From assembly GCF_030694085.1 (NCBI RefSeq), contig NZ_JAUXZE010000031.1:19573-83572 (forward strand): a DNA stretch of 64,000 nucleotides, written 5' to 3'. Below, piece by piece: positions 15,001-42,000 of the stretch (position 1 is the first letter of the stretch; every line of letters begins with the position of its first letter). The position numbers are program-made. Source of the stretch: Tabrizicola sp. Its GTDB lineage: Bacteria > Pseudomonadota > Alphaproteobacteria > Rhodobacterales > Rhodobacteraceae.

Positions 15001-18000
15001 GACGGATGAACACCCCATCGCGGGCCATGTTGGAGCTGATGGCCTCCATCAAGGCCTCGCCACCTGCTTTCAGCGTCTCCGGCAGGCTTGCGAGATCGAC
15101 GGACTTGGGGAACATCCGCGAATAAATGTGGAATGACGCCACCCCCTTGAATGGGGTAGCCGAGGCATAAACCACCGAATCCGTCTCGGAAAGGGCGGCG
15201 CCGATGGACGCACTGATGTTGGACTCGCCAGCAGCCACATGGGCCTCGTCCACCACGAAGGCCGTGCCCTGCCTGGCAATCTCGGCCAGAAAACCCGCTT
15301 TGCGGTTGATCTCAGGCCTGCGCTGGAACTGGCTGTACGTGGCGAGCACAAGATCAGTTCCTTCGGGCAGCACCCCAGCATCGAGCGCCGCCTTGCGTGC
15401 GCTGGACGACGTGGCCGGGTGCAACACATCGGAGCCAGACCCAAACTGCATGATCCCGACCCCTTCATTGAAGATGAACGGGCTGCGGAACAGATCGTCT
15501 GAACCTATGTCCTTTAGGTCACGAAAAATGTCCGTGAACAATTCTGGTTTTAGCGTCAGGAAGACCGGAACCTTGCCCTCCAGCTTTGCATAGCGCAGCA
15601 TCGCGGCGCAGAAGCGTCCTTTACCGAAGCCCGTGAAATCACTGTTTGTGAATGCTCGGCCATCGTCCATCTTGCTGATCGCAAGGCCCAGCGCATCAAC
15701 TTGCTCGGGCGAGAAGTACCCACCCAAATCTTCTTTTGCGTACTGCAGCTTGCTCGCCACATAGTCATCAATCGGGCCGACCTTCGACTCCAGATCGGCC
15801 AGAGCGCCATAGGTAGCACCGGCAAGGTTGATCGGAACCATGCCAGTCGGCGGCGCAACCTTGGAAGCCGCTTGGTAGGGAGCTTGGTACTCATTCACCT
15901 TGCGTTCTGGCACGCTCTTCACTGGCGCTGCAGGCGCTTCGCCCGCATCTACCTCGACAGAGGCCATCACCGGCATCTGGGCGGGCGAATCGCCCTGCAG
16001 CTCGAACTCAGGCCGCTCCGGCTCAACCACAGTGACGGCCTCGACCACCGCTGCTGGGTAGGTTGCCACGACGCGCTCGGCCCAATCCCAAGCCTCGGCG
16101 TAGGTACGAATCACCGGCAAGCGCTCAGGAATCTCTATGGTCAATGGCACCTCGCGGCGCGCACCGACTGAGAACATGCGCACATTGGCGCCCGCACCCT
16201 GCTTTGCGTACATCCGACCGTCCAGCTCGACCGCACCCAGCACCTCATAGTGGTCATAGACGTATTCGAGAAACGCCTTGGTGCCGCCACGAAACTCGCC
16301 CGGATTTCGCGCGTCATCACCCCCCAGGATCAATACCGAACGACCCTCTGGCTTGCGGGCTTCCAGGGTCTTGAGGGCAATGTAGTAGTCCGCACGCCGC
16401 ACACGCGGCAGCTTCTCAAACGAACGATCCCGCTCCATGGCTCCAAATGGTGGATTCGTTATCGAATAGTCGAAGCCCTCGGGCTGTTCCAGCGCCCGTC
16501 GATAGTTCAGCTCCACAGCATCGCCAACCACCACCTTTTCGCACTGGTTGGCCTTGAGCACGCTCGCACGCTTGCTGTCCAGTTCGATAGCAAAGACGCG
16601 CCCCCCTTTGTTGACGAGCGTCAGCAGCCCGCCATTGCCCGCCGTGGGCTCCACGAACGTTTTGCCCTGAAAGTCCTCATTGCCCACCAGAAGGCGCTGG
16701 GCGATGACCCCCATCGGTAGCGGGGTCGAATACTGCTGCAGCGCTATCGACTCGGCAGTCCGCATACGCGCCACCGGCAGGCCGTTGTAGTAGTCCTCGG
16801 CCACGGTGAACGCGAGTTTGTCGATCTTCCGGGAGGGACGGCTATTGAAGGCTCGGTAGCCTGCAGCCTCGACCGCCTCCTGAAAGGCCTTTAGTTGCAT
16901 GTCAGACACCTCGCCGTTGACGAGGTGGCGGGCATAAGCAGCTCGGGTGGCCCGCTCCATGTCAGACCAGTCTTTGCGGGCACCGGCCCTGATTTCCCCA
17001 AAGAACCCTTGCGCGCAATCCGCCAAGGACTCCGCGTCATCGGCGTACAGAAAGGCTCCGGCACCCAGCTCGCGGCCAGCCTTCGAGTTCGCTGCAACGA
17101 TCTCGGCATCGCCGTTGTCATTGGTCCACTGGATCAAACGTCCCGTATTCGACTCGTGTACGAGATAGCCATCCTTGTTGCGGCCCAACTGGCGAGACTG
17201 CTGCAACGCAGTCCAGAGGTTCTTGCCAATCTTGTCTTTGAAAGCCGCCTGAAATTCGCGGGCAATCTCGTCGCTTTCCTTGACGACCATGGGGCAGTTG
17301 GGCAGGCCCAACGCTGCAGCCAGCTCTGCCCCTTTGATGCGCTGATCGTCACGCGCCAGGAAATACAGCCCGCGTTCGTAGGCTGGCGAGCCCTGAGTAC
17401 GAGCAAAGCCCGCCGCAAGCAGCTTGTCGGCGTCTGCCTTGTCCTCAACATCCAGCAACAAGATGCGCTGCACCCCATCGCGCAGCCTTGCCGCACCGAC
17501 AAAATAGCCATGGGAAGCGAGATCAAACCATTTCTTTGCAGCCAAAGCACTACCCTCAAAATCCACCAAAACAGGGCACAAACAGCACCCACACAACACC
17601 TATACGACGCGCATACAGCACCAATACGGCACAAATAAAAAACCACCAGGGCACCTGGGCGCCGTGGTGGTTTTCTTGCCGCTCATGAAGCGTTACATGC
17701 CTGGGCTGCTCTCGTAAGCAGCCTCTTTTCGGGGAGCTTTGGGGTCTTCCGGCAGGATAGAAGTCAGGGGCATCTGCGCATCAAAGTGCGCCAGGGGACT
17801 GACCTGGGGGAAGTGCTCCTGGGGCGATGCGTAGATCGCATAAGGCAGGCCATCGGGATGCCGCTGGATCGCGGTGACGGTGTTGCCATATCCGCGCTCA
17901 ACGGTAGTGCGCTCGCCCTCCACTTCCGTGCGCACCAGATACCCGGCGAACTTCGGGTTTTCAATGTCCTTGAGGTACGTCTTCGCGCTGTCCAGACCGA

Positions 18001-39000: not shown

Positions 39001-42000
39001 GGCGTTCACGCTGTTGGGCTGCGCCACTCCCCCCGCGCCCATGGACGAGGACTTTGCGTCCAAACTGATTGCCGAGAAAGCTGCGATTGCAGCAGGCGCT
39101 CAGCGCGATTACGCGGCGCTGCTCGCCGAGGACTATTCGACTGTCCAAAAACGGCAGGCCGCATTTGACACTGACACCATTGACGTGGACTACATCGGTA
39201 ATCCACGCGAGCTGGTGCAATCCCTCGCTTCGCGCTATGGCATGGCATTCAGCGAGACAGGTCGTCCCGCTGAATTGCGTCCTATCAATATCCGCATGAA
39301 AGGGGTCACACCTGATTCAGTTCTCCGAAATATCGGCAATCAGATGCACCTCGCGGCTGATCTCGTTCTGAATCGTCCCGGCAAGTCACTCACCATTGAG
39401 TACAAGAACCGCGACAGCGAACAGAATCAAACAAAGGGAGGCTAAGCGCTATGGCTGCTGATATTCCTGTGTCCCTTGAGCAATTGCAGGCGCAATATGA
39501 CCGCCCTGCAATGGTTCGATCCGCCGATGATTCTTCATCCAGTATCAAAATCGAAGCCCTCAAAGAAGCCGCTTTGGGCATTGGAGTCAAGGGTGGATTG
39601 CGAAAACAGCTCGCCCACATCAATGGCGTGATCGAAAGAAAATCGCGTGAGCTGGATACGGTTTACGATTTCGGCAATCTGATGATTCGGGATCGGGTCG
39701 TACCCGCAGTTATCACCGAAGCCCGTGATTTGTATAACCAAGACGGCGCATACGCTCTGCGTTTATCTGGTGCCTCTTACAAAATCGACCAACAGCCGCG
39801 ATTCTCGTCAGTACCTCCGAACTGGCGTGATTACCTTTGGTTCGGCAATGCAGACAAAGATGATGATGTGGCATCTGGCAATATGCGGCCAAAAACAGAT
39901 TATGAGCGCCAGCTTTGGCGTGAATACATCGGGAAAGGTTGGCAGCAGGGTATCGACCAAGCGAACGTCATGCTGCAATATGGGCTCGACCGCCTGAACC
40001 GGGACTTGACTGGAATGATCCGGTTCCACACATTCGTGCTGCAGAACAAAATCACGATGCCCGCCATTGCGACGCAGACATGGGCATATTCGGCACAGCA
40101 GAATGAAACCATTGCTGTCGATGAAACGCTTCTGCGCATCACGACCTTGCCTGAATTCAACCCCGCCATTGACAAATGGCGTGCGTCTGTAAAGACCTCA
40201 GAGATCGTGCCTCCTATTCCAGCGCAGCCTACGCAGTCCATGCGCCGGATTTCGCCAAAGTTCAACCCCACGCCCGATCCAGCACAGCCGCCAGCTCCTG
40301 AACGGCGCACGCTGCCCCACGGCCAGGATGGCGAAGGGCAGGGTGCCGCAGGTGTCTGATATGAGCGAGCCCGTGGGCAAGCTGCGGGTGGAGGCCGGTG
40401 GCTTGCTGCCACGCGCTGCTCGCCTTACCGACTTCGTGCCCCCACAGCGCTTCATCGTGCCGGAGCACTTGAAAGGCGTGATGCTCGAAGCTCAGGCACA
40501 CAATGCCAGTGACGTGTACATCCAGCCTGGGTTGCCGATCTGTGCACGGATCAACGGCGACCTCATGGCTCTAACGCCCAGCACTCTCGATGAGAGCGAG
40601 GTCATGTACATGATTAAGTGGACGAGCAACCGGGACACCGCTGAAACGGACATACTTTCAGGAGTCCCGGTCAATGCTCGGTACGAGCTTTTCTCGCCAA
40701 CTGAGAGAGACGCCCGTGGCGCAAAGCTGCGCTACGGCTACCGCGTCAACATTTCCCCGATTCTCAACCCAGGTGGCACGTCTGGCCAGATCGTGCTGCG
40801 CTCAATCCCAAACGAGCCAATACCGTTCTACAAAATCGGGTTGCCAGAGACGCTTGTGCGCGATTGCATCCCCGAGAGCGGACTGGTCTACATCGCCGGA
40901 GCTACCGGATCAGGCAAGACCACCACTTTCGCGGCCATCATCCGCTACATCCTGGAAAACGACACACCCATCAAGGGCAATCTGTTGACGCATGAAGAAC
41001 CAATTGAGTTCACATACGACCAAATCAACAGCCAGCATTCAATCATCGTGCAGTCTGAGGTGCCACAGCACTTCAAGGATTTCTACGCAGCCAATCGCGA
41101 AGCGATGCGCAGAAAGCCAGGACTTGTACTGGTTGGCGAAATGCGTGACGAAGAAACCATTCGTGCCGGTGTGGAGCTATCTCTTACTGGGCATCCAGTT
41201 TTTGCCACGGTGCATGCTACTGATGTGCCATCGGTAATGCGAAGACTCATATCGCGTTTTCCATCAAACGAGCGTGCTACCGCTATTTACGACATTGTTG
41301 ATACTGCGCGGATGATAATGGCGCAGCGCCTTGTAAAAGGCATTGATGGAAAATTGATCGCTGTACGTGAATACTTGAAGTTCAACGACGAAATTCGCGA
41401 CGAATTGGCCGAGCTGGACCAGATGGGAAAGATTACCAGCGTGATCGCCAGAATCGTTGAAGAGAAAGGGCACTCCTTCCGCAAGGAAGCCAGCACGCTG
41501 CTCGCCGAGGGGCGGATCACCAAAGCTGTCGCTGAAAGCATCTTCCCACCGCAGAAGGAGCAACAGCTAAAGGCGATCCTGGCTAGTCAGGAGTCCTGAG
41601 CACCTCGCTCCTACGTGTTGCATCGGTGCCGTTTAAGCGCCGCTAATGCGCTGTGAAGGTGCTGCATAGGGTTGTTTAGGTGTCGTTTGCGTGCCACACG
41701 GGCCGCTTGCGTGTTGTATTGGTGTCGTTTTGGTGTCGCCTACGTGCCGCGAGTGCTACACTGCACTCACGATGGCGCGCAGTGCCATCTACGTGCCATG
41801 AGCTGGTCCCTTGGGACTTGTTCATGGGTATTTGTATCGACTCTTGTTGCTGACAAATTGAAGGGGGATTTATGTCAACTGGGCGTTATCACTGGAGCAA
41901 TGTCTCTGGAGAAGCCAAATTTTTCATAATCAATGCGTCGGCAAGTGTGCCGTGGCTAGCGCTGATTCTCTTTCCGCGCTGGTCCACGCTCGCAATTGCA

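Follow-up and report, generated by a model that had tools for sequence, protein, structure and literature searches.

One 11-bp repeat at four operon heads of a Dot/Icm-type plasmid: candidate binding sites for ParR-type partition proteins

When one short repeat recurs, in phase, upstream of several operons of the same plasmid, one would like to know whether a single protein reads all of the copies, and what such a protein would be doing there. The question is raised by a 64,000-nt stretch of DNA from Tabrizicola sp. (here "the window"; contig positions 19573-83572, with all window coordinates below counting from 1), part of an 88.8-kb contig that encodes a Dot/Icm-type (MPF_I) conjugation system and has a G+C content of 58%, vs. 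65% for the 4.6-Mb genome (102 contigs). An initial annotation had placed about 50 units of an 11-bp repeat in four intergenic arrays, before helicase-icmW-LPD1 (array A), icmM-L-K-E (B), dotD-C-B (C) and icmT-parM (D), and had suggested that one ParR-like protein coats them all and represses the entire Dot/Icm regulon. On balance, sequence comparison makes it probable, though far from certain, that the arrays are binding sites of ParR-type ribbon-helix-helix (RHH) proteins, with D serving as centromere and operator and A to C tying transfer operons to the partition adaptor.

One repeat family and the selection on its units

Each of the four arrays is there, no more than about 5 bp from the coordinates first given for it. 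An iteratively refined 11-mer matrix finds 47 non-overlapping units (six in A, 14 in B, 12 in C and 15 in D), whose consensus aTnnGTGCCGY is the GTGYYGYWTNN of the initial annotation in another register, with the information focused on T2, G5, T/C6, G7, C8, C9 and G10. The spacing between units is exactly 11 bp in 32 of 43 cases and 22 bp in three. Two motif-free detectors, one of lag-11 self-identity and one of column information over phased units, were run over the whole window, and at period 11 the only regions of this family that they report are A-D (periods 9 and 12 flag coding repeats, and 10 and 13 are empty). When the units were scanned against the 4.6 Mb of all 102 contigs, at least four of six phased units occurred together at A-D only; a chance GC-rich motif was rejected because the rest of the genome holds no further phased cluster. 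A matrix built from three arrays scores the fourth at 46-55 bits in leave-one-out tests, as opposed to at most 22.5 bits elsewhere in the genome. The repeat arrays are confirmed far beyond chance, and these results support a single family, unique to the four sites, in which the same putative binding unit recurs at separate promoter regions of unrelated operons.

How the units evolve can be seen by comparison with a Paracidovorax plasmid-like contig (L003), the closest genome relative and the sole close one obtained in a search of genome contigs with the ParR alignment. It is 94% identical overall, with coding sequences mostly at 94-99% and dotC at 86.5%, and the arrays are its most diverged segments (76% identity for B, 75% for C and 88% for D). 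Aligned to L003 positions 3179-3417, 5213-5452 and 8201-8442, arrays B, C and D thus fall at 75-88%, vs. 88-99% for the flanking coding and non-coding DNA. So fast a divergence points to a shuffling of units or to conversion between repeats, in addition to point mutation. Despite it, the periodic structure and the unit scores are retained, and the mismatches are far from evenly spread: their frequencies at unit positions 1-11 are 0.44, 0.10, 0.29, 0.39, 0.05, 0.20, 0.05, 0.15, 0.10, 0.12 and 0.29, which amounts to 35% at the four uninformative positions vs. 11% at the seven informative ones (Fisher p = 7e-10), with a Spearman correlation of -0.93 between matrix information and mismatch. A concentration of mismatches at uninformative positions is the signature of selection for a sequence-specific binder. 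As far as aligned DNA can tell, the informative positions are under purifying selection, and the arrays look selected.

That the arrays evolve faster than their flanks is also what one might expect of sequences without any protein-binding role, be they replication iterons, slippage-prone simple repeats or curved-DNA elements. Such an origin is hardly credible, since the divergence is confined to uninformative positions and the layout is kept across beta- and gammaproteobacterial plasmids. Replication iterons in particular were rejected, as there is no rep gene nearby, an 11-bp unit is short for an iteron, and the arrays occupy four loci.

The parM locus and its two ribbon-helix-helix paralogs

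Array D (41611..41799, plus strand; 15 units) is a parC-like site and a candidate operator of the icmT-parM operon. Within it lies an extended -10 element, TGCTACACT (41753..41761, plus strand), with 13 units upstream and two downstream. The TGCTACACT block is almost identical in L003 and in one metagenome contig (L007), and has equivalents of the form TGnTAnnnT in a second metagenome contig (L008) and in Bordetella flabilis; the counterparts in Pseudomonas savastanoi and Xanthomonas fit the pattern only loosely (TGGCATTAAT and TGGCAATAT). Two independent RNA runs gave contigs that start at 41778 and 41789, 10-30 nt downstream of the extended -10, and continue through icmT-parM, which is consistent with a transcription start just after this element; contigs of this kind gave 5' information for the icmT-parM operon only, and none for A, B or C. 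A repeat array is found upstream of the parM operon and overlapping its promoter, which supports the view that array D has the position and the split layout of a type II parC.

The operon itself starts with icmT (41872..42129, plus strand; IcmT/TraK family), followed by the gene of the actin-like partition ATPase ParM (42126..43175, plus strand), whose product matches Pfam StbA_N (1.5e-13), the ParM C-terminal domain and ALP_N, all above their cut-offs, and by tblastn matches annotated ParM/StbA in more than 5000 plasmids. The 88.8-kb contig has no gene for a ParA (PF13614) or a ParB (PF02195), which on this evidence leaves ParM and its adaptors as its only recognisable partition system. Further down, dotM/icmP (43904..45298, plus strand) places the par genes inside a transfer operon.

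Canonical type II loci have a single adaptor, and pB171 ParR (StbB, PDB 2JD3) is the structural reference for this protein. Here, the region 43175-43904, which the initial annotation had treated as coding for one ParR-like product, does encode ParR-like RHH sequence but holds two paralogous genes: a small one (P0001, 74 aa; 43175..43399, plus strand) and a large one (P0005, 171 aa; 43389..43904, plus strand, from ATG 43389). The large protein comprises an N-terminal strand-helix-helix, two more helices, a disordered Pro/Ala-rich linker and a conserved tail with the motif K-P-x-W-G-x-L-x-x-L-V, which is absent from the small one. Its AlphaFold2 model has confident helices in residues 12-86 (predicted local distance difference test score ~80 at 10-70), then disorder, with a small bump in confidence at the W-containing tail; the model of the small protein is of low confidence. 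The small paralog matches the N-terminal 55 residues of the large one in a profile-profile comparison (72% probability, E = 3e-5), and the pair stands behind parM in all relatives examined. The secondary structure agrees with strand-helix-helix, and a profile built jointly from the RHH domains of the two families matches pB171 ParR (2JD3_A) with E = 4.2e-5 and 26.3 bits over residues 6-48, the next matches being non-significant (E about 0.5-1) and mostly to NikR RHH domains. By this joint-profile match both proteins are ParR homologues, without being members of the curated family. The large one, as modelled, shows the complete architecture that the segrosome literature ascribes to ParR (PMC5016525), and sequence makes it the best adaptor candidate.

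Several observations weigh against so direct an assignment. Taken singly, the evidence from each family is weak: a ParR-like adaptor with an N-terminal RHH does lie directly after parM, but neither paralog alone passes a curated threshold, and the best single match to 2JD3 has E = 0.62. Searches of Pfam, NCBIfam and PHROGs gave no match for either window protein, and this includes PF10784 (Plasmid_stab_B, ParR/StbB) at its gathering threshold of 25 bits; the same family scores the small paralog of Xanthomonas at 16.8 bits (E = 0.006), again below threshold. When the AlphaFold2 monomer was compared with the Protein Data Bank by Foldseek, no meaningful match emerged, which is no surprise for a single RHH chain with so extended a disordered tail, and of 1.84 billion representatives the large-family profile retrieves just 15 proteins. 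Finally, covariation of unit and beta-strand fails to tell the two paralogs apart, since wherever the units differ between lineages both proteins differ as well.

The presence of two paralogs leads to a possible, though unlikely, division of labour, in which the small tail-less protein would be a transcription factor on A-C and the large one a true ParR at D only, or in which mixed assemblies form. It would explain why two paralogs are kept in every relative and why only the large one carries the C-terminal motif, and it has a precedent in pSK41, where ParR is separate from ArtA, a small plasmid RHH protein that serves as master regulator of the transfer genes and reaches the par locus as well (PMC2777438). 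By analogy ArtA is a possible model for the small paralog, although it is not encoded in tandem with ParR and its operators are not long 11-bp arrays. On the other hand, all four arrays share one unit and cross-detect each other, neither a second motif nor a 22-bp alternation is evident within them, and in distant relatives the small paralog has a largely hydrophobic beta-strand, an unusual property for a ribbon that contacts bases.

Related plasmids and the promoters of the transfer operons

A megablast search of 18 kb against the plasmid database PLSDB gave no match, so that relatives were reached at the protein level only, and a genome search at the level of the order recovered the gene from the window's own genome alone. 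The gene order icmE-K-L-M < recombinase < | > dotD-C-B > icmT-parM-small open reading frames (ORFs)-dotM is nevertheless shared by annotated plasmids of Xanthomonas euvesicatoria, X. citri, P. savastanoi, P. syringae, B. flabilis and Serratia symbiotica (labels used below: L001, Xanthomonas; L002, B. flabilis; L005, S. symbiotica pSsAf24.1-1). Arrays occupy the same intergenic sites in Xanthomonas, P. savastanoi, Serratia, B. flabilis and L007/L008, and their units, which differ from lineage to lineage, are built on a common GYG core. Xanthomonas carries about 30 nnATgGTGgc units across three equivalent spacers, P. savastanoi two blocks of AaTGTGGcA before icmT, Serratia GTGTT-type units with a 10-bp period before dotD and before icmT, B. 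flabilis GYG-core units, and L007/L008 GTGYYG units together with a ParR beta-strand that is the same as in the window protein. A matrix trained solely on the array before icmT-parM and scored on the array before dotD recovers the latter in Xanthomonas (28.3 vs. a background of at most 15), Serratia (28.3 vs. at most 14.8) and L007 (36.8 vs. at most 17.8). The icmT-parM and dotD arrays thus share a lineage-specific unit, as expected for a single binder, and their recovery in three relatives indicates that one unit in several arrays is an inherited design.

Could the binder be something other than a ParR homologue, for instance another plasmid protein such as a helix-turn-helix (HTH) protein, the neighbouring tyrosine recombinase acting through arm-type sites, or a host protein? 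In R388 an HTH protein, StbA, does read arrays of 11-bp period (bioRxiv 10.1101/2022.04.29.490116), many ORFs of the contig lack a family assignment, and arrays B and C bracket the recombinase gene (36892..38031, minus strand; in the same position in relatives) in direct orientation. We nonetheless hold a different binder to be very unlikely, given that the most conserved array sits exactly at the parC place, upstream of parM and two ParR homologues, and that units changing with the plasmid lineage argue against a host factor. Recombinase arm sites were rejected because A and D are remote from the recombinase gene and arrays of 14-15 strictly phased units are unlike such sites.

The genes behind the arrays are borne out by Pfam and NCBIfam. 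Behind array A, Pfam recognises a Strawberry-notch/SNF2 helicase, IcmW and LPD1; behind B, DotI/IcmL, DotH/IcmK and a TrbI-like IcmE; behind C, DotD, DotC (T4SS_TraI) and DotB (T2SSE); and behind D, ParM and DotM, with IcmT contributed by NCBIfam. Library matches on the contig comprise these proteins (LPD1 as a polyvalent protein) as well as a DotL-like coupling protein and an SLT lytic transglycosylase.

Array A (17562..17636, minus strand) has 6-7 units of ATTnGTGCYGT and occupies the ~95-bp gap from a strong intrinsic-terminator-like hairpin with a T-run (17640..17675, minus strand), which ends the upstream operon (a 479-aa gene) right before it, to the start of the Strawberry-notch/SNF2-type helicase gene (12164..17545, minus strand). 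This start is probably TTG 17545, a codon that is preceded by a GAGGG ribosome-binding site and gives an N-terminus matching the Xanthomonas orthologue; array A is then intergenic like the other three, as the initial annotation had it, for ORF 12164-17599 overlaps it only via an upstream GTG. The genes for IcmW (11566-12072) and the LPD1 protein (1018-4227) lie further down on the same strand. Since array A fills the entire gap from terminator to start, any promoter there must overlap it.

Array B (36611..36794, plus strand) consists of seven plus seven units around a ~30-bp spacer (36688-36717), and sits between a terminator-like hairpin after the recombinase gene and the transfer-operon head icmM-L-K-E (32491..36373, minus strand), with which a long minus-strand operon starts: icmM-like (36092-36373), icmL/dotI (35347-36105), icmK/dotH (34203-35333) and icmE/dotG (32491-34191). 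The best candidate for the icmM promoter, TTGCGG-16-TAGAAT at ~36395-36423, is just upstream of the icmM start. Array C (38615..38810, plus strand), with 7-8 plus 5-7 units around a spacer (38702-38744) that shares GGTA(TA)CATA with that of B, lies upstream of dotD-dotC-dotB (38891..41599, plus strand; the dotD start is uncertain, dotC is at 39451-40359 and dotB at 40328-41599). The dotD promoter has a conserved -10, TATGAT at ~38871, which together with the following GTGCGAAAGTGCGCTC is kept in a contig whose proteins share only ~50% identity.

These arrangements tell against a simple repressor at every operon head. The units of array B are oriented against the icmM operon, and the array ends ~190 bp upstream of the icmM promoter candidate; the last unit of array C is ~58 bp upstream of the dotD -10; a consensus scan for sigma-70 promoters came out negative within A, B and C; and the divergent promoter region of dotA and 51577-49323 is free of arrays. 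Array A, moreover, is absent in P. savastanoi and vestigial in Xanthomonas, so that by comparison it is lineage-specific. Given the orientation and distance of B and the distance of C from its -10, classical promoter occlusion is plausible for D and A only and implausible at B and C, where an effect would have to act from upstream, through looping between arrays or on promoters within the spacers. The proposed repression of the whole Dot/Icm regulon therefore overreaches.

One might argue that A-C are extra centromeres only, which enlarge or multiply the complex captured by ParM without any meaningful effect on transcription and lie at operon heads simply because these are the only non-coding gaps. 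B and C being upstream of likely promoters rather than over them would fit, as would the clustering of B, C and D within 5.2 kb, and pB171 and pSM19035 do use more than one centromere site (PMC5016525). Still, this is quite doubtful: array A overlaps any promoter in its gap, and short arrays have been gained or lost before lineage-specific accessory genes, which is more operator-like. Besides the patchy array A, extra short arrays of about five units, in the lineage's own unit, are found at 32560-32615 in L001 and 36100-36160 in L002, in both cases ahead of hypothetical accessory genes that lie downstream of dotA. Such gain and loss of arrays at operon heads is what operators show.

A study of the X. 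euvesicatoria Icm/Dot plasmid tested promoter fragments of dotD, dotA and icmL (PMC10432156). A term search of this only functional study of a relative turned up neither ParM nor partition nor StbA, and the few occurrences of "repeat" in it refer to other matters.

Several further features of the contig and its relatives may be recorded here. Between the recombinase gene and array C, a 19-nt inverted repeat (38350-38368 and 38537-38555; core GGCGTTACTCC and GGAGTAACGCC) encloses 168 bp that hold the region's only sigma-70-like match (TTGTCC-17-CATAAT, minus strand) and a 22-bp tandem repeat, and an inverted pair with this core also occurs between recombinase and dotD in the Xanthomonas and Serratia plasmids. 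From its sequence the segment looks like a fimS-type invertible promoter beside its recombinase, just upstream of array C; both orientations were sought in contigs from four DNA runs and one only was found, although assembled contigs cannot exclude a minority form. A 101-aa ORF next to it (38045-38350, minus strand) has an Arg/Pro/Cys-rich low-complexity translation and is probably no gene, the equivalent spacer in relatives being 0.7-1 kb long and unannotated. The related plasmids in PLSDB are all typed as "non-mobilizable" by MOB-suite although a complete type IVB system and a coupling protein are present in them; they apparently use a relaxase of a type that is not recognised, and the window yielded no relaxase either. 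The only other lag-11 signal of the window, at 55871-55956, was rejected as a member of the family: it is an unrelated 22-bp tandem repeat (GGCGGGGCTCAACATACGAACT, 3.9 copies) just before a Tn7-like tnsABC/tniQ module (56469-61743; a 220-aa protein, a 679-aa protein, an AAA_22 TnsC-like protein and a TniQ-like protein), and its copies may be either origin iterons or transposon-end binding sites.

Known systems and a possible link between partition and transfer

The R1 parC site flanks the par promoter with two sets of five 11-bp direct repeats, ten in all, and is bound by the RHH protein ParR. Array D resembles it in that two blocks of such 11-bp direct repeats surround a promoter immediately before the parM operon, and the likeness extends to the downstream adaptor, with its N-terminal RHH homologous to pB171 ParR and its conserved C-terminal tail. 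In contrast to R1, icmT stands here between the array and parM, the par genes are inside a Dot/Icm-type transfer operon, and there are two tandem ParR paralogs that fall below the PF10784 threshold. Type II centromeres are described as a single locus (PMC5016525), whereas here there are four arrays.

The nearest functional analogue, judged by comparison, is R388 StbA with its stbDR site, where a 9-bp repeat with a 2-bp spacer, in two sets of five, gives the same 11-bp period and further arrays of 2-5 repeats lie at other promoters (bioRxiv 10.1101/2022.04.29.490116). StbA is both a centromere binder and a repressor, and balances stability against conjugation (bioRxiv 10.1101/2022.04.29.490116; PMC3098194). 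Unlike the system described here, however, it is an HTH protein without a ParM-type partner NTPase, on an unrelated backbone (MPF_T), and its extra targets are leading-region genes rather than secretion-machine operons. The omega protein of pSM19035 is, in contrast, an RHH protein, and it binds 7-10 short repeats at three promoters that jointly make up the centromere (PMC5016525), yet its system is of type Ib, with 7-bp repeats, a Walker-type ParA (delta) as partner and a Gram-positive host, and its targets are copy-number and maintenance genes, not transfer genes. The type Ia adaptors RK2 KorB and NAH7 ParB each have several sites on their plasmid, some of them beside transfer genes, and so link vertical with horizontal transmission (PMC12421886). 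Both, however, belong to the HTH ParB proteins, whose targets are palindromes and not phased arrays, and NAH7 ParB, acting from its centromere site, is an activator of transfer genes rather than a repressor (PMC12421886).

The mechanism that we propose has the plasmid's own ParR-type RHH protein or proteins, encoded directly after parM, binding cooperatively to all four arrays, with one RHH dimer per 11-bp unit, so that the dimers would align on one face of the DNA and coat the array. Array D would then be a type II centromere and operator (parC); because it encloses the promoter of icmT-parM-RHH1-RHH2-dotM, its coating would autoregulate this operon, while the C-terminal tail of the large paralog would couple the array complex to ParM filaments. 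As arrays A-C carry the same unit, the same protein would coat the heads of the helicase/icmW, icmM-L-K-E and dotD-C-B operons, and might in this way make the expression of much of the transfer machinery depend on the adaptor's concentration, with repression as the likeliest mode; the same arrays may add centromere capacity.

One may also go a step further and regard parM, the tail-less and the tailed ParR as an integral control device of these Dot/Icm-type plasmids, with a switch set by subunit ratio, a speculative and rather improbable extension that we put forward from sequence. Both paralogs would co-assemble or compete on the same 11-bp arrays, and the ratio of tailed to tail-less protein would decide between capture by ParM, with segregation and silent transfer genes, and release, with expression of the secretion machine and transfer. 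In the Serratia plasmid L005 (positions 5819-8083 and 8574-8691), whose arrays have the 10-bp period, a parA-parB pair is inserted between dotB and icmT, yet parM and both RHH genes are kept. Were such a device real, it would explain why the module is retained in a parAB-bearing plasmid and why it has a fixed place between icmT and dotM.

Plasmids balance vertical inheritance against costly horizontal transfer, and partition proteins have a part in this in RK2 (KorB), R388 (StbA) and NAH7 (ParB), none of which is of the actin type (ParMRC) or is combined with a Dot/Icm-type (MPF_I) machine. What would be new here, and is partly supported by the sequence comparisons above, is a ParR regulon spread over several arrays, with a pair of adaptor paralogs encoded within a type IVB transfer operon: one ParR-type protein is predicted to have about 47 binding units over four operon heads. 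The design is kept in plasmids of Xanthomonas, the P. syringae group, Serratia symbionts and Bordetella, as well as in environmental Comamonadaceae frequently encountered in wastewater and groundwater metagenomes. It raises the question of why there should be two tandem ParR paralogs with a conserved C-terminal tail motif in only one of them, and in the contrast between fast-evolving non-contact and conserved contact positions it may offer a natural footprint of the recognition code. With concrete candidate operators, two candidate proteins and one promoter at hand, a link between partition and transfer in this family of plasmids becomes directly testable.

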